This document shows positions 14,241-30,143 of a DNA stretch of 64,000 nt, piece after piece (within the stretch, counting starts at the first letter, position 1; each line of letters starts with the position of its first letter). Source of the DNA: an uncultured bacterium. GTDB taxonomy: Bacteria; Sysuimicrobiota; Sysuimicrobiia; Sysuimicrobiales; Sysuimicrobiaceae. The translations under genes were made by a program, and so were the position numbers. The stretch lies in NCBI GenBank assembly GCA_964437095.1, contig CAYTFH010000015.1, positions 851 to 64,850 on the forward strand. Direction: 5' to 3'. A model generated the notes under the pieces. That model did no database searches and had not been told where the DNA came from. It worked only from the letters and a program-made list of their open reading frames with translations.

Positions 14241-14974
14241 CCCGCGTCCTGGTGGTCATGCCCCTGTACAACGAGGAGGCCACCCTGCAGGAGGTGCTGG
14301 AAGCGGTGCTGCGGTACGCACCTCCCGGTGCGGACGTGCTGGTGGTGGACGACGGCTCCACGGACCGGTCCGCCGAGATCCTGGCCCGGTTCCCGCAGGT
14401 GCGGGTGATCCGGCACCCCGAAAACCGGGGGTACGGGGCGTCCCTGATCGACGGCTTCCGCTACGCCCTGGAGCACGGCTACGACGTGGTGGTGACCATG
14501 GACTGCGACGCTCAGCACGAACCGTACCTCATCCCCGACCTGCTGAGCGCCCTGGAGGGCGCGGACATCGTGTCCGGGAGCCGCTACCTGCCCGGCTCCT
14601 CTCGAGGCCAGGAACCTCCTCCGGACCGGCTGCGCATCAACCGGGAGGTGACCCAGCGGGTGAACACCCTCACGGGCTACCAGCTCACCGACGCCTTCTG
14701 CGGGTTCAAGGCGTACCGGGCCGAGGCGCTGCGGAAGCTGCAGCTGGACGAGCCGTCGTACGGCATGCCCTTGCAGGTGTGGCTGCAGGCGGCGCGCTGG
14801 GGCTTGCGGGTGCGGGAGATCCCCATCGGCCGCATCTACAAGAACCCCCACCGCCGCTTCTGGGGCGGGCTGGACGACCCCGAGGTGCGGCTCCGGTACT
14901 ACCTGGACGTGCTGGAGCGGGAGGCGGCCCGCTGGCTCCAGCGGGCGGCGCCCTCCGGGGAGGGAGGGCCGTGA
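14237..14974 (+). CDS. family-2 glycosyltransferase (DPM1/GtrB-like)
   Basis: VVDDGSTD and DCD(xQH) GT-A motifs; ATGA overlap with hemL. Confidence 0.8.
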   Translation: MTRVLVVMPLYNEEATLQEVLEAVLRYAPPGADVLVVDDGSTDRSAEILARFPQVRVIRHPENRGYGASLIDGFRYALEHGYDVVVTMDCDAQHEPYLIPDLLSALEGADIVSGSRYLPGSSRGQEPPPDRLRINREVTQRVNTLTGYQLTDAFCGFKAYRAEALRKLQLDEPSYGMPLQVWLQAARWGLRVREIPIGRIYKNPHRRFWGGLDDPEVRLRYYLDVLEREAARWLQRAAPSGEGGP

Positions 14975-15651
14975 AGTCGGTCCTGGTCCTCGCCCCCCAC
15001 CCCGACGACGCGGAGATCGCCATGGGCGGCACCATGGCCGCGCTGGTGGCCCAGGGCTGGCGGGTGGTGGTGTGCGACCTCACGGACGGGGAGCCCACGC
15101 CCGTGGGCACCCCCGAACGCCGTAGGCAGGAAGCCGCCCAGGCCGCCCGCATCCTGGGCGTGGAGCGCCGCATCCTCGACCTGCCCAACCGGTTCCTCCT
15201 GGACGAGGTACAGGCGCGGAAGAAGGTGGCCGCGGTGATCCGGGAGGTGCGGCCGGACTGGCTGTTCGTGCCGTACTGGGAGGACGCCCACCCCGACCAC
15301 GTGCAGGCCGCGTCCCTGTGCGAGGCGGCTCGGTTCTACGCCAAGCTCACCCACACCGACATCCCCGGAGACCCCCACTACCCACGCCGGGTGGTGCACT
15401 TCTTCTCCACCCACTACCGCATGGTCCGCCGTCCGTCCTTCGTGTTCGACATCAGCGACACCCTGGAGCGCAAGATGGAGAGCCTGCGCGCCTACCAGAG
15501 CCAGTTCGGACCGGAGCGGGGGAACTCGTGGGTGCTGGACGCGGTGCGGGACGCCAACCGCTACTTCGGCCGCCTGGTGGGCGTGCAGTACGGCGAGCCC
15601 TTCCTCCTGCGGGAGGAGCTGGGGGTGCGCAGCCTGGAGGCGCTGGTGTGA
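14971..15651 (+). CDS. PIG-L/LmbE family N-acetylglucosaminyl deacetylase
   Basis: APHPDDAEIAMGG zinc-site motif; GTGA overlap with GT2 gene. Confidence 0.8.
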   Translation: MKSVLVLAPHPDDAEIAMGGTMAALVAQGWRVVVCDLTDGEPTPVGTPERRRQEAAQAARILGVERRILDLPNRFLLDEVQARKKVAAVIREVRPDWLFVPYWEDAHPDHVQAASLCEAARFYAKLTHTDIPGDPHYPRRVVHFFSTHYRMVRRPSFVFDISDTLERKMESLRAYQSQFGPERGNSWVLDAVRDANRYFGRLVGVQYGEPFLLREELGVRSLEALV

Positions 15652-17183
15652 CGGACCTGCAAATCCCCACGCGGCACGGGGAGGTGGCGTGCGTCCCGGA
15701 GCTGGGCCGGTGGCTGGAGGTGGCGGAAGCCAACGCCCGGCGGCTGGAGCAGGCGCAGATCCGGGGCCAACCCCTGGGGGCGGTGCGGGCGCAGGCCCGC
15801 CAGGAACTGGTGGCCTGCAGCCGCCAGCTGTTGGGCCGCTGGGGCCTGCCCGCGCCCGAGGTGTCCGCAGGACCGTGGGTGGCCACCGGCCACCAGCCGA
15901 CCCCGTTCCACCCGGGCATCTGGGTGAAGACGTGGGGCGTGGACGCGTGCTGCGCCCGCGGGGCGACGGGCCTGTACGTGGTGGTGGACTCTGACGAGTG
16001 CGAGCGGTGGACGGTGCGGGTCCCGCGGCGGGACGGCTCCCTGCAGGTGGCGGAGCGGGTGCTGGTCTCCTGCGGAGCCGAGGTACCCTTCGAGGCGGCT
16101 CCACCGCCGGAGGAGGCGGCCTGGCGGGGGTTCTGCGCCCAGCTGTCCCAGGACCTGGCAACCCTGCGGCTGCCCGAGCTGGTGGAGCGTCTATCCCGGG
16201 CGGAACGGGCGGGGCTGGAGAGCGTACGGTGCGCTCGGAACCTGGGCGAGTTCGGAGCCGCGCTGCGCAGGCGGCTGGAACTGGGCTGCGGGTCCGTGCG
16301 GTACCTGGAGGTGACCGTGTCGCAACTGGCGGGCACCGGCGCGTTCCGCCACTTCGCGGGCTGGATCGCGCAGCACGCGGAGCGCTTCTGGGAGTGCCAC
16401 AACCGGGCCCTGGACCAGTACCGCCGGGAGGAAGGTCTGAGGTCTGCCGCCCAGCCCTTCCCCAACCTGCGGAAAGAGGGCGACCTGGTGGAGCTGCCCT
16501 TCTGGCTCGTGTGGGGCGGGCGCCGGCGTCCGGTGTGGGCGCAGACGGGGAGGGGTGACCCCGTGCTGGTGTGCGACGGAAGGCCTGTGGGCACGGTTCA
16601 CGACCTGCCCCGGGAGCTGAGGCCGCGGGCCCTGACCCTCACCCTGTTCTTGCGGCTGGTGGTGTGCGACCTGTTCGTTCACGGCCTGGGCGGCGCCCGC
16701 TACGACCGCGTCACGGACCGGGTCATGCACGAGTTTTTCGGCACCCCGCCGCCCCCCTTCGCGGTCCTCACCGCCACCTTCCACCTGCCCCTGGCCCGCC
16801 ACCGGGACCCCCAGGCGGAGTACGCTGCCGCCCACCGGAAGTGGCTGGATCTGCACCACAACCCGGACCGCTACCTGCCCCGGGACGGCGAGGTGGCAGC
16901 ATTGGTGGAGGAAAAGTGGCGGTGCATCCAGGCCCTGAACGCCCCGGACCTGCCCCGCCGCAGCCGCCGGGAGCTCACCCAGCGCATCCGGGCCATCAAC
17001 GATTGCCTCCGGCAGCACCTCCAGGACGTGATCCGCGAGGCGGAAGCGGAGCTTGCGGCGTTGCGCCGCGAGGTGGAAGAGCACCAGGTGGCCACCGACC
17101 GCGGCTACCCGTTCTTCCTGTTCGAGCCCGAGGAGGTGCGGGCGTCCGTGGCGATGGCGGAGGGAGTGCGGTGCGGCCGGTAG
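15648..17183 (+). CDS. hypothetical soluble 511-aa protein, possibly distant BshC-like (speculative)
   Basis: GTG overlapping LmbE stop; coiled-coil C-terminus; weak GHQP...HPG resemblance to BshC GGQQ region; no TM segments. Confidence 0.5.
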   Translation: MTDLQIPTRHGEVACVPELGRWLEVAEANARRLEQAQIRGQPLGAVRAQARQELVACSRQLLGRWGLPAPEVSAGPWVATGHQPTPFHPGIWVKTWGVDACCARGATGLYVVVDSDECERWTVRVPRRDGSLQVAERVLVSCGAEVPFEAAPPPEEAAWRGFCAQLSQDLATLRLPELVERLSRAERAGLESVRCARNLGEFGAALRRRLELGCGSVRYLEVTVSQLAGTGAFRHFAGWIAQHAERFWECHNRALDQYRREEGLRSAAQPFPNLRKEGDLVELPFWLVWGGRRRPVWAQTGRGDPVLVCDGRPVGTVHDLPRELRPRALTLTLFLRLVVCDLFVHGLGGARYDRVTDRVMHEFFGTPPPPFAVLTATFHLPLARHRDPQAEYAAAHRKWLDLHHNPDRYLPRDGEVAALVEEKWRCIQALNAPDLPRRSRRELTQRIRAINDCLRQHLQDVIREAEAELAALRREVEEHQVATDRGYPFFLFEPEEVRASVAMAEGVRCGR

Positions 17184-17848
17184 ACCCCGTGGTCACGGAG
17201 GGCCTGGGACGTCGCTTCGGCCCCGTGGTGGCTCTCGAGAACGTGTGGCTGCGGGTCCACCAGGGCCAGGGCTTGCTGCTGGTGGGGCCCAACGGCTCGG
17301 GCAAGACCACCCTGCTGCGGGTGCTGGCCACCGCCTTGCGGCCCAGCCCGGGAAGGGCGTGGGTCTGCGGGTACGACGTGACTTCCGAGGGCCACCGGGT
17401 GCGGGAGGTCTGCGCGTACCTGGGTACTTCCCCGGGCCTGTACGGGGCCCTCACGGGGTGGGAGAACCTCTGCCTGGCCGCGGACCTGTGCGGCCGGCCC
17501 CGCGCCGCGGCCCGGGACGCGCTGGCGTGGGCCGGCATGGAGTCGGTGGCGGGTAGGCCCGTGGGGACGTACAGCCTGGGAATGCGGCGGCGGCTGGCGC
17601 TGGCCCGGGTGTACCTACAGCAGGCCCGCGTGCTGCTGCTGGACGAGCCCTTCGTGGGCCTGGACGACCCGGGCGTGCGCCTGGTGCGGGAACTCGTGGA
17701 AGACACAAAGCGCCGTGGCGGCGCCGTGGTGCTGGCCACCCACGACCGGGACCGGGCCCTCGGACTGTGCGAGGCCGTGGCGGAGCTGCAGTCGGGCCGT
17801 CTGCGACCCGCCCTTGCGGGTTTGGCCGCGGTGAGGGCCGAGCGGTGA
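17171..17848 (+). CDS. ccmA: haem exporter ATPase CcmA (ABC)
   Basis: Walker A GPNGSGKTT; degenerate signature YSLGMRRRLALAR; followed by ccmBCDE. Confidence 0.8.
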   Translation: MRPVDPVVTEGLGRRFGPVVALENVWLRVHQGQGLLLVGPNGSGKTTLLRVLATALRPSPGRAWVCGYDVTSEGHRVREVCAYLGTSPGLYGALTGWENLCLAADLCGRPRAAARDALAWAGMESVAGRPVGTYSLGMRRRLALARVYLQQARVLLLDEPFVGLDDPGVRLVRELVEDTKRRGGAVVLATHDRDRALGLCEAVAELQSGRLRPALAGLAAVRAER

Positions 17849-18498
17849 GGGCGTGGCGGCGGGCGGTGGCCCTGGCCCGCAAGGATCTGCTGCTGGAGTG
17901 GCGGGTGCGGGACGCCCTGCTGCCCGCGGGCACCTTCGGCCTTGCGGTGCTGCTGGTGCTGGGCTTGGCCTCCGGCGGAGGCCCCGAGGCCGCGGCACCC
18001 GTGCTGTGGGTGTCCGTGTCCTTGGCCGCGGTGCTGGCCGTGGGCCGCACCACCGAACGGGAAGGGGAAGAGGGGACCTTGGAGGCGCTGCTGTTGTACC
18101 CGGGAAGCCGGGAAGACCTGTTCTGGGGCAAGTGGATGGCCCTGGCGAGCCTGGTGGCGCTGCTGGCCGCGGCCCTGTGGTGCGCGCAGGCGGTCTTGTT
18201 CGGCGCGGGCGTGCGGGCGTGGGGACCCTTCGCCCTCACCGTCCTGCTGGCCGCGTCGGGCCTGGGGGCGGTGGGCACCTTGCTGGCGGCGGTGCTGTGG
18301 AGCGTGCGGGCTTCCCGCCTGTTGCTGCCCCTGTTGTTCCTGCCCACGGCGCTGCCGGTGCTGCTGGCGGGCGTGCGCCTCACGGAGGCCGCGTCGCTGG
18401 GGGCCCCCTCGGGCCCCTGGCTGGGGGTGCTGGCCGCGTTCGACCTTCTGTTCTTGCTGGTGGGACCCGCGCTGTTCGAGGCGGTGGTGGAGGGCTAA
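17845..18498 (+). CDS. ccmB: haem exporter membrane protein CcmB
   Basis: 6-TM ABC-2 permease at the ccmB position; GTGA overlap with ccmA. Confidence 0.75.
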   Translation: MRAWRRAVALARKDLLLEWRVRDALLPAGTFGLAVLLVLGLASGGGPEAAAPVLWVSVSLAAVLAVGRTTEREGEEGTLEALLLYPGSREDLFWGKWMALASLVALLAAALWCAQAVLFGAGVRAWGPFALTVLLAASGLGAVGTLLAAVLWSVRASRLLLPLLFLPTALPVLLAGVRLTEAASLGAPSGPWLGVLAAFDLLFLLVGPALFEAVVEG

Positions 18499-19137
18499 GT
18501 GAGAGCGTTCCTGACCGGCGGGACCATGGCCCTGCTGTGCGCGGGGCTGTTCCTGGGCCTGTGGGCGTCCCCGCCGGACGCGTACCAGGGAGAGTACGTG
18601 CGGATCATGTACGTGCACGTGCCCGCCGCCCTGGCCGCGTACGCCGCGGCGGCGGTGGCGTGCGCCACCGGAGCCCTGTACCTGTGGCGGCGGCGGGTAG
18701 ACTACGACCTCGTGTCGCACGCGGGTGCGGAGCTAGCGGCGTTGTTCAGCGCGCTGACGTTGCTCACGGGGATGCTGTGGGGAAGGCCCGTGTGGGGGGT
18801 CTGGTGGGCCTGGGACGCGCGCCTGGTGAGCACCGCGGTGCTGTTCTTCCTGTACGTGGGGTCGCTGCTGGTGCGGGGGCTGGCGGAGGACCCCGACCGC
18901 GGGCGCAGGCTCGGCGCGGCGGTGGCGGTGGTGGCGTTCCTGGACGTCCCCCTGGTGCACTACTCGGTGGTGTGGTTCCGCACCCTGCACCAGGGGCCTT
19001 CCATCAGCCTGCAGGGTGTGAGGATCGCGCCCGAACTCCTCCTGCCGCTCTCGGTGAACGTGGTGGCCTACCTGAGCCTGCTCAGCTGGCTGCTCGTGGA
19101 GCGCAGCCGCCTCGCTCGGGCGGAGGCACAACCGTGA
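18499..19137 (+). CDS. ccmC: haem exporter protein CcmC
   Basis: WWD domain WGVWWAWDARL plus conserved His-containing loops. Confidence 0.85.
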   Translation: MRAFLTGGTMALLCAGLFLGLWASPPDAYQGEYVRIMYVHVPAALAAYAAAAVACATGALYLWRRRVDYDLVSHAGAELAALFSALTLLTGMLWGRPVWGVWWAWDARLVSTAVLFFLYVGSLLVRGLAEDPDRGRRLGAAVAVVAFLDVPLVHYSVVWFRTLHQGPSISLQGVRIAPELLLPLSVNVVAYLSLLSWLLVERSRLARAEAQP

Positions 19138-19262
19138 GCCCATGGGTGTGGGTGGCGTCCGCTTACGGGTGCGCGGCCCTGCTGGTGGGCGGATACGTGT
19201 GGTGGCTGCGGCGCAGGCTGCGCCGCGCCGCCTCGCGCGGGAACCAGGAGGTGGAGGGGTGA
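19134..19262 (+). CDS. ccmD: haem exporter protein CcmD (42 aa)
   Basis: single TM plus RRRLRR tail; GTGA overlaps at both ends. Confidence 0.6.
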   Translation: MSPWVWVASAYGCAALLVGGYVWWLRRRLRRAASRGNQEVEG

Positions 19263-19642
19263 AGCGTCTGCGCCTGGTGGCTGCGGTGGCGGTGGTGGTG
19301 GGCGCCCTGGGCTACGTGGTGGCCGGTGGCCTGCGGGAGTCGGTGGTGTACTACGTCACCCCCACGGAGCTGCGCTCCGGCAGCGTGGACGTGCGTCGGC
19401 CCGTGCGGGTGGGAGGGCAGGTGGTACCCGGGTCCCTCCACCGGGACGGCGGCACGGGGGAGCTGCGCTTCGTCCTCTCCGACGGCCGCACCACCCTGCC
19501 CGTGCGGTTCCGCGGGGACGTGGCGGGGCTGTTGGTCCAAGGTCAGGGTGCGGTGGTGGAGGGCCGGCTGGACCCGGACGGATCCTTACGGGCCCACACG
19601 GTGGTGGTCAAGCACTCCGAGGAGTACCGGCCGCCGCGCTAG
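19259..19642 (+). CDS. ccmE: cytochrome c maturation haem chaperone CcmE
   Basis: N-terminal TM, OB-fold, C-terminal VKHSEEY haem-binding His/Tyr motif. Confidence 0.8.
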   Translation: MKRLRLVAAVAVVVGALGYVVAGGLRESVVYYVTPTELRSGSVDVRRPVRVGGQVVPGSLHRDGGTGELRFVLSDGRTTLPVRFRGDVAGLLVQGQGAVVEGRLDPDGSLRAHTVVVKHSEEYRPPR

Positions 19643-19800
19643 CGGCTTGACGCGGGGGCAGTCCGGTGCGGAAAATCGTGGCCGGACCTTCACGGCGGGG
19701 GCCCGGCGGGGCCCTTGCGCGTTTTTCGGGCTCGCGAGAGAGGAGTCCGGGTCCCGGAAGTCAAAAACACACGCCGAGTTCACGGGTTTCAGGAGGCACC

Positions 19801-20700
19801 TTGCGCCGACGCCAAGCCGGGCCCCTGTGCGGCCGGCGGCCCCGCGCGGCGGGCCCCGGCGGGTTGCTGCTGGTGGCCGTCCTGTTCCTGGCGGGCTGCC
19901 AGCCCTACGTCCGCGTCAGCACTGCGGCCCGGGAGGCCTACCAGCCCCTGGAGGGGTTCGCGGTGCGCATGAACTTCATGCCCCGTAAGCCCGACGCGGA
20001 CGCGGGCAAGAAGATCTACGAAGCCCGCTGCGCCGTCTGCCACGGGCCGGAAGGGCGCGGGGACGGCCCCATGGCCCAGCAGCTCACCGCGCCGGAGAAG
20101 AACCCGTACACGGACTTTCTGAGCCTGTTCCGGATCCACCCGAAGACGGAACCCCTGCCGAGCCGTCCCGCGCGGTTCAACAACCTGGACCAGATGCGGC
20201 TGAACGCGCCCTTTGCCATGTTCGAGACCATCGCCCGGGGCCGGCCCCACACCGCCATGCCGGGGTTCCAGCACCCCGCCTACGGGGCCGTGGACGGGGG
20301 CGAGCCGAGGTTGTCCGACCAGGAGATCTGGGGCGTGCTGTTCTGGGAGTGGAGCCGGACCACCAGCCGTGAGCGCCTGGCACAGGGGCGGCGGATCTAC
20401 AACGAGATGTGCGCCAGCTGCCATGGGGTCCGCGGCGACGGCAACGGCCCGGAGGCCGCGAAGATCCGGGAGGAAGTGTGGACGTGGGCGCGGGGCGTGG
20501 GCCCCGGTATTTTCACCGACCGGGACTGGATGGCGTACCGTAAGCCCACGGAGCTGTACCAGAAGGTGGCCGAAGGGGTCCGGCGCCGCGGGCTGGAGCT
20601 CATGCCCGCGTACGCGGACAAGCTCACCCCGGACCAGATCTGGACCGTGGTAGAGTACCTGTGGACGTTCGTGTACACGCCTCCCCGGGAGATGCGGTAG
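19801..20700 (+). CDS. dihaem cytochrome c lipoprotein
   Basis: two CxxCH motifs (CAVCHG, CASCHG); lipobox LAGC; TTG start after AGGAGG (alternative ATG at 19666). Confidence 0.75.
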   Translation: MRRRQAGPLCGRRPRAAGPGGLLLVAVLFLAGCQPYVRVSTAAREAYQPLEGFAVRMNFMPRKPDADAGKKIYEARCAVCHGPEGRGDGPMAQQLTAPEKNPYTDFLSLFRIHPKTEPLPSRPARFNNLDQMRLNAPFAMFETIARGRPHTAMPGFQHPAYGAVDGGEPRLSDQEIWGVLFWEWSRTTSRERLAQGRRIYNEMCASCHGVRGDGNGPEAAKIREEVWTWARGVGPGIFTDRDWMAYRKPTELYQKVAEGVRRRGLELMPAYADKLTPDQIWTVVEYLWTFVYTPPREMR

Positions 20701-20719: not shown

Positions 20720-21364
20720 GTGAACCGGAGGACGTTCCTCAAGCTCCTGAGCGCAGTGCCCGCGTTGGGGGCCCTGGGCGCGTTCCTGGCCCCGGTGCTG
20801 CGGTACCTCAAGCCGAACCTGGAAGCCGGCTTGGGCGTCCCCAAGGGTAAGGTGGTGCCGGACCTGGCCGAGGGCGACCTCCCCAAGGGGGAAGCCCTGC
20901 CCATCGCCACCCTGGAGGAGCTGCGGGAGCCGTGGTCCAGCAAGTTCTTCGTGTTCACGCAGAAGTACCCCCAGTACACGCCCGAGCAGGCGAAGGCGGC
21001 TACGGTACCCGGGGTGGCCGTCAAGCTGCCGTGGAAGCTGTCGTTCCCGGGCTACAAGGGGGGCAAGGAGCCCACGGACATCGTGGTCTTCTCCCGCATC
21101 TGTCCGCACCTGGGCTGCATCTTCAACTACGTGCCCAACTGGCGGGAGGTGACCGCGGGCTACGGCGGGTACGTGCCGCCGGAGGACCGCCGCCACGGGC
21201 TGATGGCCTGCCCGTGCCACCTGTCCATCTATGACCCCGCGGACCGGGAACTGCCCGGTCGGGTGCTGTCGGGCCCCGCGCCCCGCCCGCCCCGGTTCTT
21301 CACCTACGAGATCCGCGACGGGGTCATCGTGGTGACCGGCGCGGAGCCCGGCGGGATCGCCTGA
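20720..21364 (+). CDS. Rieske [2Fe-2S] subunit of a cytochrome bc/b6f-type complex
   Basis: Tat motif RRTFLK; CPHLGC...CPCHLS Rieske boxes. Confidence 0.9.
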   Translation: MNRRTFLKLLSAVPALGALGAFLAPVLRYLKPNLEAGLGVPKGKVVPDLAEGDLPKGEALPIATLEELREPWSSKFFVFTQKYPQYTPEQAKAATVPGVAVKLPWKLSFPGYKGGKEPTDIVVFSRICPHLGCIFNYVPNWREVTAGYGGYVPPEDRRHGLMACPCHLSIYDPADRELPGRVLSGPAPRPPRFFTYEIRDGVIVVTGAEPGGIA

Positions 21365-21376
21365 GGGGGCTTCGGG

Positions 21377-22525
21377 ATGTGGGACCGGCTGCGGGAGTGG
21401 TTCCGGGAGCGCAAGGAGAAGCTGGACCTGTTCGACGAGACCCGCGTGGACCGGCAGGACAACCCCCTCTACATCCTCGGGCAGATCGTGTACTTCTCCT
21501 GGATCGCGGTGGTGGTGAGCGGCATCCTGCTCATGATCTGGTACGAGCCCACCGCCCACGGCGCGTACAACTCCATCCTCCGGATCCAGCGGGAGATCCC
21601 CTTCGGCTGGCTCATCCGCGGCGTCCACAAGTACGGCGCGGACATGCTCATCCTGGCCATCACCCTCCGCATCTACCGGATGTACTTCCTCGGCGAGTAC
21701 AAGCGGCCCCACGAGCTGTCGTGGATGATCCTGTTCGGGTCCCTGGTCCTGGCCATGATCTCCGGCCTCACGGGCTACCTGCTCATCTGGAACCAGCGGG
21801 CCTTCTGGGCCGCCAAGGTGGTGCTCACCGTGGCGGTGTACCTGGACCAGTTGCCCCTGGTCGGCCAGACGCGGTTCGGCAGCGCCATCGCCTTCGCCTT
21901 CCTCGGTGGGCCCGCGGAGGGGCAGGGGACCCTCACCCGCTTCTACGCCATCCACTTCGGCATCTCCGCCCTGTTGCTGGTGGCCACGGAGGTGTACTTC
22001 TACTTCACCCGTAGGCGCCGGTTCGTGCTGTCGCCTGCGGCCCTGGTGATCCTCGCCCTCATGCTGGTGGTCACCAGCTACGTGTTCCCCGCGGAGATGG
22101 GCCGGCGCGCCGATCCCAACCGCACCCCGCTGCCCATCCTGTCGGACTGGTACTTCCTGGCCCTGTACCAGTACGTGAAGTACACCCCGCCCCTGTGGGC
22201 GGGCCTGGGGCCGGGCCTGCTCATCGCGTACGGCATGCTGGTCCCGTTCCTGGACCGCAGCAAGGGCCGCCGGCCCTCGGAGCGGCCCTTCTTCACCGTG
22301 GTGGGCGTGATGGCCCTCACCTACTTCCTGGTGTTTACCGCCCTGATCATGTTCAACATCGCGGTGATCGGCCGGGACCCGCACGTGGTGCTGCTGGTCA
22401 CCGCGGCCACCCTGACCTTGGGCCTGGCGCTGGAGCTGCGCTACCGGAAGCGCAGGAAGCTGGCGGAGGCCGCCGCTCCATCTCCCGCGCCGCGGCCCGC
22501 CCCGGCCCGGGCCACGGCGGGGTGA
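21377..22525 (+). CDS. cytochrome b (b6 fused to subunit IV), atypical: n-side haem ligands absent
   Basis: [14 protein letters not shown] and TLTRFYAIH align to PetB, but the second His of each pair is Arg and Tyr; SDWYF subunit-IV motif. Confidence 0.85.
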   Translation: [382 protein letters not shown]

Positions 22526-22985: not shown

Positions 22986-24161
22986 GTGTACCGGCGGATC
23001 CTGAGGGGACTGCAGAGCGCCACCCTGCGGGTGGACGTGTGGATCAACGGGGTCCTGCCGCAGGATTTCAACCCCCTGTACTACACGGGCGGTCTGAGCA
23101 ACCTGTTCCTGACCATCCTGGTGGTCTCCGGGATCCTCATCTTCCTGTACTACGAGCCCAGCCTGGAGGGGGCGTACGCCTCCGTGGAGTTCCTGACCCG
23201 GGACGTGCCCTACGGGGTGGTGTTCCGCGGCATCCACCGGTACGCCGCGGACGCCTACCTGGTGGCCATCCTCCTGCACCTGTTCCGGAACTGGTTCACC
23301 GACCGCTACCGGGAGGCCCGGGACAGCCAGTGGCTGTCGGGGATGTTCCTCCTGGTGGTGTCGGCCTTCACGGGCTTCACCGGGTACCTACTGGTGTGGG
23401 ACGAGCGGGCGCAGCTGCTGAGTAGCCTCACGGTGCAGGCCCTGCGGTCGGTGCCCCTGGTCGGGCCCTGGCTGGCCCAGGTGTTCCTGGGCGGCCCGGG
23501 GGTGAGCGACACCACCCTGCCGCGCTTCCTCTTCCTGCACATCGGGCCGGCCATGACCCTGTACGTGCTCCTGTGGTGGCACTACGTCCGGCTGCGCCAC
23601 CCCAAGATCTGGCCGCCCGCGGTGTGGGTCCTGTTCAGCCTGGGATTGCTGTTCATCCTGGCGTCCGCCCTGCCTGCGGCCAGCGGCCGGCCCGCGCAGC
23701 CCGGCGCTTCCCCCGAGGGGTTCCCGGTGGACTGGTTCTTCCTGTGGCCGTACGTGCTGGCCCGTTGGATGGCCCCGGGTTGGGCCCTGGCCCTGGTGGC
23801 GGCCCTGGTGGCGTACGGCATGGTGATCCCCTACACCCTGCGGGAGACCCCGGAGGAACGGGAGGTGCGGGCCCTGGGGCAGGCGGTGGTGGTGGAGGAG
23901 AACTGCACCGGCTGCGATCTGTGCTACTACGACTGCCCGTACAACGCCATCTACATGGTGCCCAGCCCCTACCCGGGCAAGAGCCGGGCCGCGGCCAACC
24001 GCAAGCTGCTGGCCGTGGTGGTGGACTCCCGGTGCGTGGAGTGCGGCATCTGCATCGGCGCATGCCCCTTCGAGGCTCTGGAACTTCCGAGGATGTTGGA
24101 CAAGGACGTGCAGGAACGCATCCGGCGGGGGGCCCAGGCACCGGCCCCCGCCACCCCGTGA
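22986..24161 (+). CDS. cytochrome b (b6 + subunit IV-like) fused to a C-terminal 2x[4Fe-4S] ferredoxin domain
   Basis: all four haem His retained (IHRYAADAYLVAILLH; LHIGPAMTLYVLLWWH); CTGCDLCYYDCP and CVECGICIGACP motifs. Confidence 0.85.
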   Translation: MYRRILRGLQSATLRVDVWINGVLPQDFNPLYYTGGLSNLFLTILVVSGILIFLYYEPSLEGAYASVEFLTRDVPYGVVFRGIHRYAADAYLVAILLHLFRNWFTDRYREARDSQWLSGMFLLVVSAFTGFTGYLLVWDERAQLLSSLTVQALRSVPLVGPWLAQVFLGGPGVSDTTLPRFLFLHIGPAMTLYVLLWWHYVRLRHPKIWPPAVWVLFSLGLLFILASALPAASGRPAQPGASPEGFPVDWFFLWPYVLARWMAPGWALALVAALVAYGMVIPYTLRETPEEREVRALGQAVVVEENCTGCDLCYYDCPYNAIYMVPSPYPGKSRAAANRKLLAVVVDSRCVECGICIGACPFEALELPRMLDKDVQERIRRGAQAPAPATP

Positions 24162-24170
24162 GGCAGGACC

Positions 24171-24596
24171 ATGGCCACCGTACCGGAGCGAACTCCCAGC
24201 CCTGACAGCCCGCCCCGGGTGGTGGGTTTCCTGTGCGACTGGGCGGTGCGCAGCGAGGGATTGCTGAACCCCGACGACACCCTGGTGGGCATGCCTCACG
24301 TGACCGTGATCCGGGTGCCGTGTTCGGGGTTCGTGAAGCCCAGCTGGCTGGAGCTGGCCCTCCGCAGCGGCGCCGCGGGGACCTTCGTGTGCGGTTGCCC
24401 CATGGGGGACTGCCTGAACCGGGAGGGCAACTGGATCATCGAGGACCGCATCGACCAGCTCCGCAAGCGGCTCAGCCGTCAGAAGGTGGACCCCGATCGG
24501 GTGGCCTTCTTCGCCTACGGCCTGCACGACCGGGAAGCCTTCCTGCAAGCGGTGGCGGAGTTCGTGGAGCGGCTGCGGTCGGGAGGGAAGCGGTGA
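24171..24596 (+). CDS. MvhD/FlpD-like iron-sulfur protein (hydrogenase delta-subunit family), standalone
   Basis: FLCDW...VIRVPCSG...VCGCPMGDCLNREGN matches the FlpD Cys pattern (5 of 6 Cys). Confidence 0.75.
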   Translation: MATVPERTPSPDSPPRVVGFLCDWAVRSEGLLNPDDTLVGMPHVTVIRVPCSGFVKPSWLELALRSGAAGTFVCGCPMGDCLNREGNWIIEDRIDQLRKRLSRQKVDPDRVAFFAYGLHDREAFLQAVAEFVERLRSGGKR

Positions 24597-24709
24597 CGCG
24601 GTTTGGCCCCAAGCGGTGGAGGACGTACCTGTGGTACGCGGTGTTCTACCTCCTGTTCTTCGCCCTGTTGCTGTTCGTGGCGGCCTTCGGCCTGGTGGCG
24701 GAGGCGTAG
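24593..24709 (+). CDS. 38-aa single-TM peptide (FixQ/CcoQ-like position)
   Basis: GTGA overlap with MvhD-like stop; YLWYAVFYLLFFALLLFVAAFGLV helix; directly precedes CcoN-like gene. Confidence 0.4.
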   Translation: MTRFGPKRWRTYLWYAVFYLLFFALLLFVAAFGLVAEA

Positions 24710-24723
24710 GCCCGGAGGGACGG

Positions 24724-26115
24724 ATGCTGGTGTGGATGTTCACGGACGAGCGGTGGAGTTCCGCCCGGCGCTTCCTGTACACGGGCGCCCTGTGGGGACT
24801 CGTGGCCCTGGCGTACGAGGTCCTGGTGGCCCTGCAGCGAGCCTGGCCCCAGCTGCTGGCGGACGTCCCCTGGGCTGCGCACGGGCGGGCGGTGGCGGCG
24901 GCCCACGACCTGTGGGTGTACGGGGTCCTCTCGAGCTTGCTGGTGGGAGCCGCCCTTCGGGTGGTGGGCCAGGGCGACCGGGAGGGGCTGTGGAGCGAGC
25001 CGCTGGCGAACCTGAGCGTCTGGCTGTGGAACCTGGCCCAGGTGTTGGGCTGGTGGTGGTTGTCCGTGGGCTGGACCCGGGGCCGGCCGGGGGCCGAAGC
25101 GCCCTGGCCGGTGGACCTGCTGCGGCTTGCGGCGGGGCTGCTGCTGCTGTGGGTGGTCCGCAGGACCCTCGCCCGCAATCCCCGCCGGGAGCCGGGGCTC
25201 GCCCTCCTCGCGGTCGCCTTCACCGCCTTCCCCTTGGTGCTGGTGCTCGGCAAGGGGCTGTTCTGGCCCTTCGACAACCCGTACCGGGGGGTCGTGGACG
25301 CCCTGGCGCAGGCCTTCCTGCGGGCGGGCTTGGTGTGGCTGTGGCTGGCGCCCCTGGCCAGCGGGGTTTCCCTGTACGTCCTGGCAGCCTTGGGCGGACG
25401 TCCGGGGCTGTCGGAGGGGCTGGGGATGGCCGCGGTGACGGGTTTTGCGGGGTTCGGCGCCCTCGCGGGCCCCTCGGCCTTCGTGTGGGGCCCGATCCTC
25501 TTCTGGGTGCAGACCCTGGGTGCGGTGGCGCAGGCCCTGTTGCTGCTGCCGGTGGCCACCGTGCTGACCGGTGCGGTGCGGTCCCTGGAGGGGAGCTGGC
25601 ACGGGCCCGGTGACCACCCCGGGGTGGCCCTGGTGCTGGCGGGGCTTGTGGCCGTGTTGTGCGGCGCCGCCGCCTCTGCGCTCGCCTCCGTGGCGGGCCC
25701 CAGCCGGGTCATCCACCTTTCCGCCTGGCTGGAGGGAACCAGAGCCCTGACGGTGGGCGGTCTGAGCGCGGTGGCGGCGGGGTGCACGTACCTGCTGACC
25801 CCGCACGTCCTGGGGCGGGCCCTGGCCAGCAGGAGCCTGGCGTGGCGGCACCTGTGGCTCGTGGTGGGTGGCTGGGCGGTGGGCGTTCCCGCGCTGCTGC
25901 TGGCGGGGTTGAGCCAGGGAGCGGTGTGGGCCACGGGCACGGTCCCCTTCGCCCACTCCGTGGAGGCCGCGCGGCCCCTGCTGGCGGCGGGCGTGACGTG
26001 GGCAGTGCTCGGGTGGGTCGGACAGGCGGTGTTCGCGTGGAACCTGTTCCTGACCGCGGACTCAGGGGAGCCGGTGCCCGCGGCGGAGCAGGAGCTGGCG
26101 CCCGTGGCGGGCTAG
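24724..26115 (+). CDS. cbb3-type oxidase subunit I (CcoN) homologue lacking the CuB/high-spin haem His ligands
   Basis: N-terminus ALQRAWP...PWAAHGRAVAAAHDLWVYG aligns to CcoN helix I-II; 12-TM hydrophobicity; no HH pair anywhere; WWYGHN region is WWWLSV. Confidence 0.7.
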   Translation: MLVWMFTDERWSSARRFLYTGALWGLVALAYEVLVALQRAWPQLLADVPWAAHGRAVAAAHDLWVYGVLSSLLVGAALRVVGQGDREGLWSEPLANLSVWLWNLAQVLGWWWLSVGWTRGRPGAEAPWPVDLLRLAAGLLLLWVVRRTLARNPRREPGLALLAVAFTAFPLVLVLGKGLFWPFDNPYRGVVDALAQAFLRAGLVWLWLAPLASGVSLYVLAALGGRPGLSEGLGMAAVTGFAGFGALAGPSAFVWGPILFWVQTLGAVAQALLLLPVATVLTGAVRSLEGSWHGPGDHPGVALVLAGLVAVLCGAAASALASVAGPSRVIHLSAWLEGTRALTVGGLSAVAAGCTYLLTPHVLGRALASRSLAWRHLWLVVGGWAVGVPALLLAGLSQGAVWATGTVPFAHSVEAARPLLAAGVTWAVLGWVGQAVFAWNLFLTADSGEPVPAAEQELAPVAG

Positions 26116-26125
26116 GAGGCGTCGG

Positions 26126-26587
26126 GTGAGGGACCCTGTGATCCCTGTGGTGCGGTTCGTGGTGGCCGCGGTGCTGTGCGGTTTTCTGGCCACGGTGCTG
26201 CTGCCGAGGCTGGACCCCGCCGTCCGACCCGCCCGCGCTGCGCCCCTCGGGCCGCAGATCCAGCGGGGCCGGTGGGTGTACGTCCGTGAGGGCTGTGTGG
26301 CCTGCCACACCCAGCAGGTGCGGGCGGTGGAGGCCCGGTTCGGGGTGGTGCGGGGTCAAGGGGACGTGGGAGAAGCTTCCGGGCCCGCCCAGTACGCGGG
26401 ACAGAACCCCGTTCTGCTGGGGTCCTTGCGGCTGGGCCCGGACCTATCCCACGTGGGGGCCCGCAGCCAGGACCCCAACCAGCTGCGGTCGTTGCTGCGG
26501 TCCGGCAGCGTGGGGATGCCGCCGGTCCGGTACCTTTCGGAGTCCGAGCTGTCGGACCTGGTGGCGTACCTGTTAAGCCTGCGCTAG
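26126..26587 (+). CDS. cbb3-type oxidase subunit II (CcoO/FixO)-like monohaem cytochrome c
   Basis: VYVREGCVACHTQQVR and RLGPDLSHVG match CcoO signatures. Confidence 0.8.
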   Translation: MRDPVIPVVRFVVAAVLCGFLATVLLPRLDPAVRPARAAPLGPQIQRGRWVYVREGCVACHTQQVRAVEARFGVVRGQGDVGEASGPAQYAGQNPVLLGSLRLGPDLSHVGARSQDPNQLRSLLRSGSVGMPPVRYLSESELSDLVAYLLSLR

Positions 26588-26674: not shown

Positions 26675-27214
26675 ATGGCGGAGCAGGCCCAGACCGTCCG
26701 TCCCTCTCGGTGGCTGCTGGCCCTGTACGTCCTGCTGCCCCTGTGGGCCGTGGCGTACCTGTTCGTGGCGGGAGGCCTGGTGCAGCCGGAAGTTCAGCCC
26801 GTGGCCCGCACCGTGGAGGGGGTCTCCGTGGGAGCCGGGCCCGTGGTGGACGACCCCGAGCACGTCATGGGCATCCTGGCGGTGGTCCCCGAGGACGCCC
26901 GGGACGACCGGCCGCCGCGGCCCATGACCGAGGCCATGCTGGCCCAGGCCAAGACCCAGTACGACACCCTGTGCGCCGTGTGCCACGGTCCGGAGGGCCG
27001 GGGCGACGGGCCCGCGGGCGCGGCGCTGAACCCCAAGCCCATGAACTTCCACTACCGGTCCTTCCAGGAGCGCATGCCCGTGGGCGCCACCCACTGGGTG
27101 ATCAAGAACGGCCTCGGCAACACCCCGCGGCGCAGCGGCATGCCCGCCTTCGGCCAGCTGCCCGACGACCAGATCTGGGCCCTGGTGGAGTACGTGCGCC
27201 GGCTGGGCCGCTAA
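26675..27214 (+). CDS. membrane-anchored monohaem cytochrome c
   Basis: N-terminal TM, CAVCHG, distal Met (SGMPAF); AGGAGG RBS. Confidence 0.8.
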   Translation: MAEQAQTVRPSRWLLALYVLLPLWAVAYLFVAGGLVQPEVQPVARTVEGVSVGAGPVVDDPEHVMGILAVVPEDARDDRPPRPMTEAMLAQAKTQYDTLCAVCHGPEGRGDGPAGAALNPKPMNFHYRSFQERMPVGATHWVIKNGLGNTPRRSGMPAFGQLPDDQIWALVEYVRRLGR

Positions 27215-27280: not shown

Positions 27281-28273
27281 GTGGTGGAGCCGCAAGCTCA
27301 GGCGGCCGCGGACCAAGCCCTGGCCGCGGCGTACGCGCCGGTCCGGGAGGACCTGGAACGGCTCCAGCACCTGCTGCGGCGGGAGCTGGCGGCCCACGAC
27401 CCCTTCCTCATGGAGCTGGTCTCCCACGTCCTGCGGACGCGGGGGAAGATGGTGCGGCCCGCCCTGGCGTTCCTGTGCGCCCGGCTGGCGGGTGGGGGCG
27501 GCCCGCACCGGGACCTGGTGGCCGGAGCCGTGGAGCTGATCCACGTGGCCAGCCTGATCCACGACGACGTCATCGACGAGGCGGACCGCCGGCGGGGGCA
27601 GGTGACCCCCAACGCGCGGTGGGGCAACCACGTGGCGGTTCTGCTGGGCGACTACCTGTTCAGCAAGGCCTTCCACATGCTGGCCCGCATCGGCCGGGAC
27701 GACGTGGCCAGCCGGGTGGCCTTCGCCACGGTGCGCATGAGCCAGGCGGAGCTGCTGCAGATCAAGTACGGCAACGCTCCCCACACGGACGAGACCGTGT
27801 ACTTCGCCATCGTGGAGGGTAAGACCGCGCAGCTGGTGTCGTCCGCGTGTGCCGGCGGGGCCCTGGTGGGCGGAGGGCACGGCGACCTGGCAGAGCGCCT
27901 GGGGGAGTTCGGGCTCCACTGGGGCGTGGCCTTCCAGATCACCGACGACACCCTGGACCTCACCAGCGACCCCGAGGTGCTGGGCAAGCCCATCGGCAGC
28001 GACGTGCGGGGCGGCAAGGTGACCCTGCCCCTCATCCACGCCCTGCGGCAGGCGGACGAGGAGGGCCGCAGGAAGCTGGAGGGGTGGATCCGCACGGGGC
28101 AGCTGGAACCCCTGCGGGAGGCCCTGCAGGCGTCCGGGTCGCTGCAGTACGCCCTGGAGGTGGCCCGCCAGCACGCCCAGCGCGCCCTGCAGATCCTGGA
28201 AGGTCTGCCGCCCGGCCCCGAGCGGGACAGCCTCACCACCCTCACGGAGTTCGTGGTGTCCCGGAGGCACTGA
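27281..28273 (+). CDS. trans-polyprenyl diphosphate synthase (hepta/octaprenyl type, quinone side chain)
   Basis: two Asp-rich motifs (LIHDDVIDEAD, ITDDTLD); GTG after GGAGG. Confidence 0.85.
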   Translation: MVEPQAQAAADQALAAAYAPVREDLERLQHLLRRELAAHDPFLMELVSHVLRTRGKMVRPALAFLCARLAGGGGPHRDLVAGAVELIHVASLIHDDVIDEADRRRGQVTPNARWGNHVAVLLGDYLFSKAFHMLARIGRDDVASRVAFATVRMSQAELLQIKYGNAPHTDETVYFAIVEGKTAQLVSSACAGGALVGGGHGDLAERLGEFGLHWGVAFQITDDTLDLTSDPEVLGKPIGSDVRGGKVTLPLIHALRQADEEGRRKLEGWIRTGQLEPLREALQASGSLQYALEVARQHAQRALQILEGLPPGPERDSLTTLTEFVVSRRH

Positions 28274-28356: not shown

Positions 28357-29565
28357 GTGGGCTCGGTGCGGGGCGCGGCGGAACTGGTGTGGGCGCTGGC
28401 GGTGCGGGTGCGGGAGGCCATGGTGCGGTTCGCGGTGGCCACCACCTCCCGGCACCTGGAGCGTCACCGGGACGCGGTGCTGGCCCGCTGGCGTGCGGCC
28501 CTGCGCCGCCGGGTGGCCCGCTACGCGGAACACCAGGAGCTGGCGCAGCGCTGGGGCCAGCAGACCGTGGACCTGTTGGTCCAGGTCATGCGGGCGTGGG
28601 GGGAGGCGCAGAGCCTGGAGGCCCGGGACCAGGTGTTCGCCCACGCCCACCGGGTGGCGGCGGAGCAGCTGGAGCTGGGGTTCCGCCTGGAGGAGATCCT
28701 GCAGGCCCTCAGCCTGCTGCGCAGCAGCCTGTCCGCGCAGGTGCAGGTGATGCTGAGCCGCCGCCTGTGGGTGGCGTTCCCCCCGGATGTGATGCGGGCC
28801 ACGGAGCGCGTGCACGAGGCCATCGACCTGCAGATGCTGGCCATCGGGCAGGCCTACCTGGACGCCCGGGACCGGGTGATCCGGCAGAAGCAGCAGGACC
28901 TGGAGGAGAGCAACGAGAAGCTGCGGACCCTGCTGCGGGAGATGCACCACCGGATCAAGAACAATCTGCAGACCCTGGCGGACCTGCTGTACCTGGAGAC
29001 CCTGGACGCGGAGGGGCCCGCCCGCAAGAGCCTGCTGGACAGCATCGGCCGGGTGAAGAGCATCGCCGCGGTGCACCACATGCTCTCCGCGGACCGCATC
29101 GAGGCCGTGGAGGTCCGGCGGCTGGCGGAGCGCATCGGGGAGACCATGGGGCGGGACCTGGTGCGGGGCGGGCGGGCGGTGCAGGTGGAGGTCCGGGGAC
29201 CGGAGGTCTGGCTGCCGAGCAAGCAGGCCACGGCCCTGGCCCTGGTACTCAGCGAGCTGCTGCACAACGCCCTGGAGCACGCCTTCCCCGACGGCCGGGG
29301 GCGGGTGGAGGTGGAGCTGGGGCGGGCGGGGCCGCAGGTGTGGGTGCGGGTGAAGGACGACGGGGTGGGGCTGCCGCCGGGGTTCTCCGTGGAGCAGCAC
29401 GGCCACCTGGGCCTGCGCATCGTCCGGGACCTGGTGGCCCGGGACCTGCAGGGGGTCTTCGCGCTGCGCACGGAGGGCGGGACGGTGGCGGAGGTGAGGT
29501 TCCGGCTCCCGGAGGGCGAAGGGTGGCAGGAGGTGCGGCGGACGAGCGGGGAGGTGACGGTGTGA
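28357..29565 (+). CDS. sensor histidine kinase, HisKA_2 type, with RsbR-N/globin-like N-terminal sensor domain
   Basis: EMHHRIKNNLQTL H-box; HATPase C-terminus; no TM helices. Confidence 0.75.
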   Translation: MGSVRGAAELVWALAVRVREAMVRFAVATTSRHLERHRDAVLARWRAALRRRVARYAEHQELAQRWGQQTVDLLVQVMRAWGEAQSLEARDQVFAHAHRVAAEQLELGFRLEEILQALSLLRSSLSAQVQVMLSRRLWVAFPPDVMRATERVHEAIDLQMLAIGQAYLDARDRVIRQKQQDLEESNEKLRTLLREMHHRIKNNLQTLADLLYLETLDAEGPARKSLLDSIGRVKSIAAVHHMLSADRIEAVEVRRLAERIGETMGRDLVRGGRAVQVEVRGPEVWLPSKQATALALVLSELLHNALEHAFPDGRGRVEVELGRAGPQVWVRVKDDGVGLPPGFSVEQHGHLGLRIVRDLVARDLQGVFALRTEGGTVAEVRFRLPEGEGWQEVRRTSGEVTV

Positions 29566-30143
29566 AGGACCGGCTCCGCATCCTTATCGCGGACGACGAG
29601 GCCATCCGGGTCATGACCCTCAGGACCCAGCTGCGGGCCCTGGGGTTCGAGGTGGTGGCGGAAGCCACCAACGGCCGGGAGGCGGTGGAGCTGGCGGCCC
29701 GGTGTGAGCCGGACCTGGCCATCCTGGACATCAAGATGCCGGAGCTGGACGGTATTGCGGCCGCCCGGCAGATCACCGCGCGGCGGCCCATTCCCGTGAT
29801 CCTCCTCACCGCCTACAGCGAGCCGGAGCTGGTAGAGCGGGCCACCGAGGCGGGCGTGTTCGCGTACCTGGTGAAGCCCGTGAGCGAGGAGGACCTGCTG
29901 CCCACCATCCTCCTGGCGCGGGCCCGGTTCGAGGAGTTCCGCCTGCTCCAGCGGGAGGTGGCGGACCTGCGGGAGGCCCTGGAGGCCCGCAAGATCATCG
30001 AGCGGGCCAAGGGGATCCTGATGAAGCGGCTGGGCATCAGCGAGGCGGAGGCCTTCCGCCGCATGCAGGTGCAGAGCCAGAAGGAGAACAAGAAGCTGGT
30101 GGAGATCGCCCGGGCCATCGTCACCGCCCACGGGGTGCTGTAG
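29562..30143 (+). CDS. response regulator with ANTAR RNA-binding output domain
   Basis: receiver (ILIADDE...DIKMP...KP) plus ANTAR (KIIERAKGILMKRLGISEAEAFRRMQ); GTGA overlap with kinase. Confidence 0.85.
   Translation: MKDRLRILIADDEAIRVMTLRTQLRALGFEVVAEATNGREAVELAARCEPDLAILDIKMPELDGIAAARQITARRPIPVILLTAYSEPELVERATEAGVFAYLVKPVSEEDLLPTILLARARFEEFRLLQREVADLREALEARKIIERAKGILMKRLGISEAEAFRRMQVQSQKENKKLVEIARAIVTAHGVL

Follow-up and report, generated by a model that had tools for sequence, protein, structure and literature searches.

MvhD (FlpD)-type proteins are known as connectors within the flavin-based bifurcating heterodisulfide reductase (Hdr) complexes of anaerobes. What is the role of such a protein in an operon for a bc-type respiratory complex? 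The question is raised by 64,000 nucleotides of contig CAYTFH010000015.1 (assembly GCA_964437095.1; hereafter the window, meaning the whole stretch analysed) from an uncultured bacterium of the Sysuimicrobiota. Here, a gene for an FlpD-type protein and an overlapping gene for a 38-residue membrane peptide lie between the gene of a cytochrome b with a ferredoxin domain and a CcoN-like gene (Table 1). The answer that we propose, with a probability of roughly 0.7, is that both belong to an atypical complex of the Rieske/cytochrome b kind, FlpD as its cytoplasmic [2Fe-2S] subunit and the peptide as a membrane subunit with a single helix.

FlpD and the peptide in a conserved gene module

The FlpD gene is an open reading frame (ORF) of 141 codons with an ATG start, in a genome of 72% guanine plus cytosine (G+C). 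Its family had been proposed in an original prediction made from the DNA letters alone, and a hidden Markov model search confirms it: PF02662 (FlpD, 'methyl-viologen-reducing hydrogenase delta subunit') matches the ORF with an E value of 1.3e-24 and 87 bits, for a cut-off of 22.3. The alignment is near-complete, residues 17–136 lying on profile positions 1–120 of 123, and the motifs listed in that prediction (FLCDW, VIRVPCSG and VCGCPMGDCLNREGN) are all present in the translation. A further match is to the part of NCBIfam's HdrA2 model that resembles MvhD, its C terminus. Among solved structures, MvhD of the Mvh–Hdr complex (5odc_D, E 6e-15) is the closest relative, and ElpC (8rvu_F) is matched as well. 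We used AlphaFold2, with 16 family members as input, to generate a model of the protein (mean predicted local distance difference test score (pLDDT) of 88.2). The predicted structure has the α/β fold of MvhD; when compared with the PDB using Foldseek, its only significant matches are MvhD and ElpC chains (5odc_D, E 5e-10 and template modelling (TM) score 0.74; 8rvu_F, TM score 0.71/0.78).

Four cysteines, C22, C51, C76 and C81, are invariant in alignments of both the protein's own clade and the wider clade, and could hold a [2Fe-2S] cluster as its putative ligands. In forms of FlpD that are fused to cytochrome b (described below), three of the four are invariant and the fourth is kept in at least 90% of the 44 fusions aligned. 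The CCNWC of methanogen MvhD reads LCDWA here, so that two of the six methanogen cysteines are replaced, and not one, as had been counted. Neither does their loss amount to a defect: the four cysteines that are invariant in the clade are the four retained across the wider family. C74 is an extra cysteine, unconserved among relatives.

No hydrogenase or Hdr gene was found in Pfam and NCBIfam scans of about 20 ORFs (positions 7014–27214), the rest of the 64 kb being read as ORF translations only; within that scope, the absence of Hdr and Mvh genes nearby, noted previously, is borne out. The usual context of the MvhD family, an HdrA-type flavoprotein with a hydrogenase, formate dehydrogenase (Fdh) or Elp donor, is found neither in the operon nor, within the same scope, in the window. 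We then compared the proteins of the window with those of 74 related loci, five of them fetched by exact protein and 69 taken as one per species genome. None has an HdrA, hydrogenase, Fdh or Elp gene adjoining FlpD, as seen from the conserved gene order and, for five loci, from Pfam-annotated gene tables.

The gene that FlpD does adjoin, in 74 of 74 related loci, is that of the cytochrome b with a ferredoxin (Fer4) domain. Every related locus with enough DNA (74 loci) has the same order: cytochrome c, Rieske protein, a first cytochrome b (here cytb1), two small membrane proteins, a second cytochrome b with its Fer4 domain (here cytb2), FlpD and the peptide. The stop codon of cytb2 overlaps the start codon of FlpD in L003/L004, L005, L079 and L081, for which gene calls were inspected; the overlap is absent in the window. 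Of the 62 species loci long enough to tell, only 10 have oxidase-like genes after FlpD and the peptide (12 of 67 when five extra loci are included). Otherwise, a polyprenyl synthase gene comes after the peptide, and in L005, the one of these loci with an inspected gene table, a cupredoxin gene intervenes. Because the order of the module is fixed and oxidase-like genes are mostly absent, we assign FlpD to the Rieske/cytochrome b module and not to the oxidase. FlpD thus follows the cytochrome b::ferredoxin gene directly, as first described, but to see it as a standalone module inside a bc/oxidase operon is not right: in its synteny with the gene of this cytochrome it is an obligate partner, and elsewhere the two are covalently fused.

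Close relatives of FlpD (55–90% identity) come from metagenome-assembled genomes (MAGs) labelled Armatimonadota, Bacillota, 'ANGP1' and Candidatus Sysuimicrobiota (the CSP1-3 phylum). An exhaustive profile search returned 2722 representatives of the FlpD family, just 11 of them at E < 1e-30. The same module is present outside the phylum in L076/L077, L079, L080 and L081, downstream of cbb3-type oxidase genes, and L082 encodes a more distant FlpD, again after a cytochrome b::Fer4 gene. The lineages outside Sysuimicrobiota in which the module is split into separate genes span 48–68% G+C. Deinococcota and Deinococcales are the sole labels recovered for them; L081 is a MAG whose FlpD cluster carries the Deinococcota label.

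Elsewhere, single polypeptides of 500–720 residues carry cytochrome b, the ferredoxin domain and FlpD together. A search with one such fusion, P0123 (695 residues), returned at least 630 protein clusters at E ≤ 1e-20, and the named fusion clusters are from Deltaproteobacteria, Nitrospirota (including 'Nitrospira sp.') and Nitrospinota MAGs. In the alignment of 44 fusions, the four heme histidines and the eight ferredoxin cysteines are invariant. AlphaFold2 predicts a natural fusion of 532 residues to form one compact and confident body (pLDDT 84.6, predicted TM score 0.84); a Foldseek search with this model matched cytochrome b chains only, and nothing for the iron–sulfur domains. As natural fusion is a classical sign of joint function, the separate cytochrome b, ferredoxin and FlpD proteins are taken to act together. 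The inspected fusion genes adjoin A/B-type oxidase genes (COX1 and SCO1, with COX2 and heme O synthase in some loci; L075, L083, L084 and L085), and neither a Rieske gene nor cytb1 stands beside them. In L085 (8001–13467), two fusion genes flank a gene for a NuoF-like flavin mononucleotide (FMN)/NADH protein (PF01512, E 6e-46), the start of which overlaps the end of the first fusion gene, an arrangement of translational coupling.

The peptide is tied to FlpD just as closely. Its GTG start overlaps the FlpD stop (GTGA), with a Shine–Dalgarno sequence (GGGAGGG) 5 nt upstream, in keeping with the translational coupling that had been proposed. It has a basic N terminus with four Lys or Arg residues, one hydrophobic helix and the tail AEA; the helix was located by a Kyte–Doolittle scan, which was applied to the peptide and the small proteins only and is blind to amphipathic heme-binding helices. 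No Pfam or NCBIfam family matches the peptide at E ≤ 0.01. It is nevertheless encoded wherever a related locus extends at least 130 nt beyond FlpD (67 of 67), and the 4-nt start/stop overlap is kept in 49 of 59 distinct contexts. Pairwise divergence among 63 distinct DNA versions is 0.34, 0.18 and 0.50 at the three codon positions, a pattern that shifts as expected in the other frames. The peptides of related loci end in the motif F[VI]A[SA]FG[LI][VI]AE[AT], and homologous tails (...FGLIAE, WFGIFSEV, WFGPFSEV and CFGLVAEF) follow FlpD in unrelated genomes of 48–70% G+C (L078, L079, L081 and L082). In P0123, the one long fusion inspected, a transmembrane helix and a further domain come after FlpD; the helix thus stands in the same order as in the FlpD–peptide pair. 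Conservation, coding pattern, start overlap and homologues outside the phylum together identify the peptide as a genuine gene product tied to FlpD. That it is a chance ORF of a high-G+C genome is ruled out by its conservation, its substitution pattern and its homologues elsewhere. Most simply, it is a subunit with one helix that packs onto the helix bundle of cytochrome b.

Two different cytochromes b and a proposed path of electrons

The two cytochromes b are about 28% identical and always occur together in one operon. In cytb2, the four histidines that ligate the bL and bH hemes (H84, H98, H185 and H199) do not vary among the 74 orthologues, which come from all lineages. Seven of its eight ferredoxin cysteines are equally invariant (74/74); the eighth, C313, is found in 73 and is replaced by Ser in one. 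Cytb1 is different. Alignment with spinach and Chlamydomonas cytochrome b6 identifies its H84 and H193, invariant in 60 of 60 orthologues, as the p-side heme ligands. The ligands of the n-side heme (b6 His100 and His202; Table 1) are both absent in 58–59 of the 60 orthologues across lineages, and E205, two residues before Y207, is invariant. Only cytb2, therefore, has the four histidines of a two-heme cytochrome b.

The module also has the features of quinol oxidation that are characteristic of Rieske/cytochrome b complexes. The equivalent of the PEWY motif, SDWYFLxLY, is invariant in cytb1 (60/60); the corresponding motif of cytb2, xD[VW]F[FY]L, is looser, with Asp in 73 of 74 orthologues and Trp often replaced by Val. 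The Rieske protein has the CxH...CxxH motifs and the twin-arginine translocation (TAT) export of bc1/b6f-type complexes, and its Pfam Rieske score is marginal (18.2 bits for a cut-off of 20.3). Two K00412 cytochrome b genes are listed for nearly all of the approximately 45 Sysuimicrobiota MAGs tabulated in the supplement of PMC11604079. Strict synteny suggests that these are the pair of this operon, in which case it would be the sole Rieske/cytochrome b system in these MAGs.

We propose that the complex would comprise the diheme cytochrome c, the Rieske protein, cytb1, cytb2, two or three small membrane proteins and FlpD. Cytb1 and cytb2 would form a heterodimeric core, with FlpD docked on the ferredoxin domain of cytb2 at the cytoplasmic face. 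Quinol would be oxidized at the Qo site of cytb1 against the Rieske cluster, the first electron leaving through the Rieske protein and the diheme cytochrome c to a terminal oxidase. The second electron would pass onto bL of cytb1. Because cytb1 has no inner heme behind bL, this electron would have to cross to cytb2, from bL to bL; such transfer between outer hemes is established in bc1 dimers. Within cytb2 it could then move from bL to bH, next to the pair of [4Fe-4S] clusters, which would sit where helix F ends on the cytoplasmic side, and finally to the [2Fe-2S] cluster of FlpD. Electrons would be exchanged between FlpD and a flavoprotein or ferredoxin of the cytoplasm whose gene lies elsewhere.

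A flavoprotein is the likely next partner, since the MvhD family hands electrons to flavin in Hdr complexes: in the solved structures, MvhD and ElpC relay them from a [4Fe-4S] chain through [2Fe-2S] to flavin (PMC12350162). The NuoF-like neighbour in L085 is the single concrete lead to that partner, with ferredoxin as the alternative. If electrons do leave by this route, the enzyme would carry out quinone-based bifurcation with an open low-potential branch, a scheme proposed, without proof, for Rieske/cytochrome b complexes of anammox bacteria (PMC12954380; PMC5600118). The assembly would be an obligate-heterodimer complex III, in which half of the quinol electrons go to ferredoxin or NAD(P)+ and not into a Q cycle. 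We regard this extension of the proposal as tentative and, on balance, doubtful.

Several points weigh against the complex as drawn. The existence of fusions with no Rieske gene or cytb1 beside them implies that the cytb2–Fer4–FlpD unit can work without a Qo partner, which weakens the case for a heterodimer. Tyr, Phe or Leu at the His202 position rules out standard ligation of an inner heme in cytb1, but other binding modes are conceivable. No gene for a cytoplasmic partner is found in the window or in the split-type loci. Finally, we infer the cofactor content, the subunit stoichiometry, the cytb1–cytb2 heterodimer and the docking of FlpD from sequence.

The architecture could also be right and the direction opposite. 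The iron–sulfur wire would then be an entry, feeding electrons from ferredoxin or, through a NuoF- or HdrA-like flavoprotein, from NAD(P)H into bH of cytb2, from where they would continue to a site of quinone reduction or traverse the membrane in the direction of the oxidase. The complex would then be a hard-wired input of the ferredoxin/NADH:quinone (or :oxidase) kind. We give this possibility appreciable weight, short of even odds. The NuoF-like FMN/NADH protein that is coupled to fusion genes in L085 fits it, as does the recurrent linkage to oxidase genes, both cbb3-type with intact ligands (L076, L079 and L081) and A/B-type (L075, L083 and L085); as a matter of general bioenergetics, the membrane potential favours outward movement of electrons. 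However, entry leaves the loss of the inner heme of cytb1 in every lineage unexplained, and a NuoF-like gene is found neither in the operon of the window nor in the 74 related loci. That loss favours a complex in which all low-potential traffic runs via cytb2, and leaves the sign of the flow unfixed.

Two further roles of FlpD have to be weighed. It may carry no electrons at all and serve in redox sensing, in assembly or as a structural cap over the ferredoxin domain. No acceptor or donor gene adjoins it, and MvhD-family clusters located at interfaces could conceivably report a redox state, yet the retention of the four cysteines across phyla and in fused forms, the constant place of FlpD at the end of a chain of invariant ligands (four histidines and eight cysteines) and the flavoprotein partner in L085 make such a role improbable. 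About as improbable is that FlpD is a conventional MvhD whose HdrA flavoprotein or Mvh-type hydrogenase is encoded in another part of the genome, so that it would stand in the bc operon only incidentally. Its sequence and fold are indeed closest to those of MvhD, ElpC and the HdrA2 C terminus, and some Sysuimicrobiota families have a group 3c hydrogenase (PMC11604079). Against this, FlpD stands next to cytochrome b::Fer4 in 74 of 74 loci and also in other phyla, proteins in which it is covalently fused to cytochrome b are common, and neither the ORFs scanned (7014–27214) nor the translations of the rest of the window revealed an Hdr or hydrogenase gene. The mvhA gene of the group 3c hydrogenase is listed in only about 6 of the approximately 45 MAGs of the same supplement (PMC11604079), compared with near-universal possession of two cytochrome b genes. 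On synteny and this distribution of mvhA, we also rejected the idea that FlpD is a leftover of an Mvh/Hdr system.

That the peptide is a FixQ/CcoQ-type small subunit of the downstream cbb3-like genes, as its position directly before the CcoN-like gene had suggested and its single helix and CcoQ-like size would allow, is barely credible: of 62 species loci, 52 have the peptide after FlpD and lack an oxidase-like gene downstream, it also follows FlpD in lineages in which cbb3 genes lie upstream of the whole module (some 6 kb upstream), it is coupled to FlpD by the start/stop overlap, it matches no Pfam or NCBIfam family, the neighbouring CcoN homologue is devoid of metal ligands, and P0123 has a transmembrane helix after FlpD within the same polypeptide. 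The proposal that FlpD and the peptide are subunits of a Rieske/cytochrome b complex is thus the one that we retain.

Neighbouring genes

Table 1. Features of the module and its surroundings, with the two n-side heme positions of cytb1 (positions are those of the window).
Feature	Position	Strand	Evidence
Diheme c-type cytochrome, first gene of the module	19666..20700	+	Two Cytochrom_C/Cytochrome_CBB3 domains, PF00034 E 1.4e-22; syntenic in all related loci
Rieske [2Fe-2S] protein, TAT signal	20720..21364	+	TIGR01416 E 4e-10; CPHLGC and CPCHLS motifs
Cytb1, b6-like and subunit-IV-like parts fused	21377..22525	+	PF00033 E 5e-31, PF00032
b6 His100 position in cytb1: R98			Arg in 59/60 orthologues
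b6 His202 position in cytb1: Y207			Phe/Tyr/Leu; His in 2/60 orthologues
Small membrane protein 1, 87 residues	22530..22793	+	Syntenic homologues, 30–64% identity
Small membrane protein 2, 64 residues, two predicted helices	22790..22984	+	Syntenic homologues; two hydrophobic segments
Cytb2 (helices A–F) with C-terminal 2x[4Fe-4S] ferredoxin domain	22986..24161	+	PF00033 E 8e-31, Fer4 families
FlpD/MvhD-type protein, putative [2Fe-2S] subunit	24171..24596	+	PF02662 match, AlphaFold2 model, invariant cysteines
Single-helix membrane peptide, 38 residues, predicted cytoplasmic N terminus	24593..24709	+	67/67 loci; coding-type substitutions
Heme-copper-oxidase subunit I homologue (CcoN-like), metal ligands lost	24724..26115	+	PF00115 E 7.5e-24
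Short FixO/CcoO-like monoheme cytochrome c	26126..26587	+	PF02433 E 5.8e-15
Monoheme cytochrome c	26675..27214	+	PF00034 E 1.3e-11
Polyprenyl synthase	27281–28273		

The true start of the diheme cytochrome c is probably downstream of the listed start of its ORF. The two small membrane proteins encoded between the cytochromes b are syntenic in all related loci and have equivalents outside the phylum as well. The first has no Pfam or NCBIfam match and the second no Pfam match; the GTG start of the second overlaps the stop of the first (GTGA).

The gene after the peptide is homologous to the CcoN subunit of cbb3 oxidases, as its first description as CcoN-like implied, but the ligands of an oxidase have been lost. 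A CcoN has six histidine ligands and a cross-linked tyrosine. Compared with Pseudomonas stutzeri CcoN (3mk7_A), the CuB histidines are replaced (H207 by Ala, H257/H258 by Ser/Ala), as is the cross-linked tyrosine (Y251 by Gly), and of the helix 10 histidines of heme b3 and heme b, H345 falls in a gap and H347 is Arg. One histidine lies beside the helix-2 heme b ligand (H60-like, with an offset of one residue) and is unconserved in orthologues. These losses are common to all Sysuimicrobiota copies downstream of FlpD. The protein is probably an accessory of part of the phylum and not an oxidase, to judge from these residues, and both cytochromes c encoded after it travel with it. By contrast, every covered ligand is intact in the CcoN proteins encoded upstream of the module in L076, L079 and L081, the L076 gene being cut at its 5′ end so that His60 is unreadable.

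The gene directly after FlpD in L080 (8571–10928) encodes a heavy-metal P-type ATPase that has a metal-binding domain at its N terminus. We take it to be of the kind of copper pump that matures cbb3 oxidases (CcoI/FixI), which fits close ties between the module and a functional cbb3 oxidase in that lineage.

Genes for heme biosynthesis (HemA, HemC, HemD, HemB and HemL) and for cytochrome c maturation (CcmA/B, CcmC and CcmE) immediately precede the bc module on the same strand (9016–19642), and together with the module they make up a single long heme/cytochrome gene block. Just before the CcmA/B genes is a long ORF (15318–17183) with 15 cysteines and no Pfam match; the gene at this position in L001 (523 residues) likewise has none. 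A histidine kinase (of the HisKA_2/HWE type in the L001 orthologue) and an ANTAR response regulator are encoded after the polyprenyl synthase gene (28357–30143) and are syntenic in the closest relatives; they may have a part in regulating the respiratory operon.

Comparison with known systems

Our literature searches found no description of an MvhD/FlpD protein with a Rieske/cytochrome b complex, and two papers on Sysuimicrobiota/CSP1-3 do not discuss the complex. The sole trace is RME88945.1, a protein with cytochrome b6, DMSOR_beta-like and FlpD domains that is listed without comment in an appendix table (PMC8756737). PMC5600118 mentions clades of cytochrome b that belong to 'large conserved operons of unknown function' and that may include the present family. 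Automatic annotation has meanwhile named FlpD and fusion genes 'hydrogenase iron-sulfur subunit', 'F420-non-reducing hydrogenase subunit' and 'heterodisulfide reductase A2', and the ligand-less oxidase homologue may be counted as ccoN in published metabolic tables. Such names and counts can mislead metabolic reconstructions of uncultured phyla.

With a member that is hard-wired to the cytochrome b of a bc-type system, in aerobic respiratory operons from several phyla of bacteria, the MvhD family reaches another kind of energy-converting enzyme. This arrangement also offers a natural system for asking whether the low-potential chain of a Rieske/cytochrome b complex can exchange electrons with cytoplasmic carriers, and whether transfer from outer heme to outer heme within a dimer is ever obligatory. 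Should bifurcation through an open branch prove true, a respiratory bc complex would also provide the reducing power on which Sysuimicrobiota and their relatives draw for autotrophy.

With MvhD, VhuD and ElpC (5ODC, 7BKB and 8RVU), the FlpD of the window shares the Pfam family, the predicted fold (TM score 0.71–0.78) and four cysteines at the ends of strands 1–3. Identity is about 30%, and two of the six methanogen cysteines are missing. The partners differ too: hydrogenase, Fdh or HdrA for these proteins, and a bc-type cytochrome b in an aerobic respiratory cluster of bacteria for the FlpD studied here. A similar order of domains is found in Methanosarcina HdrA2 (NF040770), for which the ferredoxin of cytb2 matches model positions 571–639 and FlpD positions 635–770, that is, ferredoxin and then MvhD; many other Fer4 families match the ferredoxin domain at least as well (E 5e-9 for HdrA2), and the flavin domain of HdrA is absent here.

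The QmoABC and HdrED/DsrMK-type modules combine a diheme membrane cytochrome b with a cytoplasmic iron–sulfur protein, and QmoB has an MvhD-like domain. They share with the module described here the logic of a chain from the quinone pool through a diheme cytochrome b and [4Fe-4S] clusters to an MvhD-type domain. Their cytochrome b is of the NarI/HdrE type and not PF00033, and HdrA-like flavoproteins are present; we know of no Rieske protein or c-type cytochrome in these modules.

Rieske/cytochrome b complexes of anammox bacteria, in which an NAD(P)-binding iron–sulfur flavoprotein is found, have been proposed, without proof, to make NAD(P)H (PMC12954380; PMC5600118). They have in common with the present complex that redox subunits on the cytoplasmic side are added to a core of Rieske protein and cytochrome b, implying communication between the low-potential chain and carriers of the cytoplasm. 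Here, a ferredoxin domain on the second cytochrome b and an MvhD take this place, the operon encodes no NAD(P)-binding subunit and a single heme is predicted for one of the cytochromes b.

Cytochrome b6f likewise has a b6-like cytochrome b and several single-helix small subunits, to which those described here are similar in concept (PetG/L/M/N-like). Its CxGG motif for heme cn is absent here, the position reading ILGQ in cytb1 and YTGG in cytb2. Transfer from ferredoxin to the n-side hemes of b6f has long been proposed for cyclic electron flow (bioRxiv 10.1101/2020.08.22.262592), and the entry of electrons considered above would recall this proposed ferredoxin:b6f step. What sets the present complex apart from b6f is the presence of two different cytochrome b genes, a covalently attached ferredoxin domain and small peptides with no family match to Pet subunits. 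Its departures from the Rieske/cytochrome b family as a whole are a pair of different cytochromes b, one of them predicted to bind a single heme, and an iron–sulfur extension into the cytoplasm.

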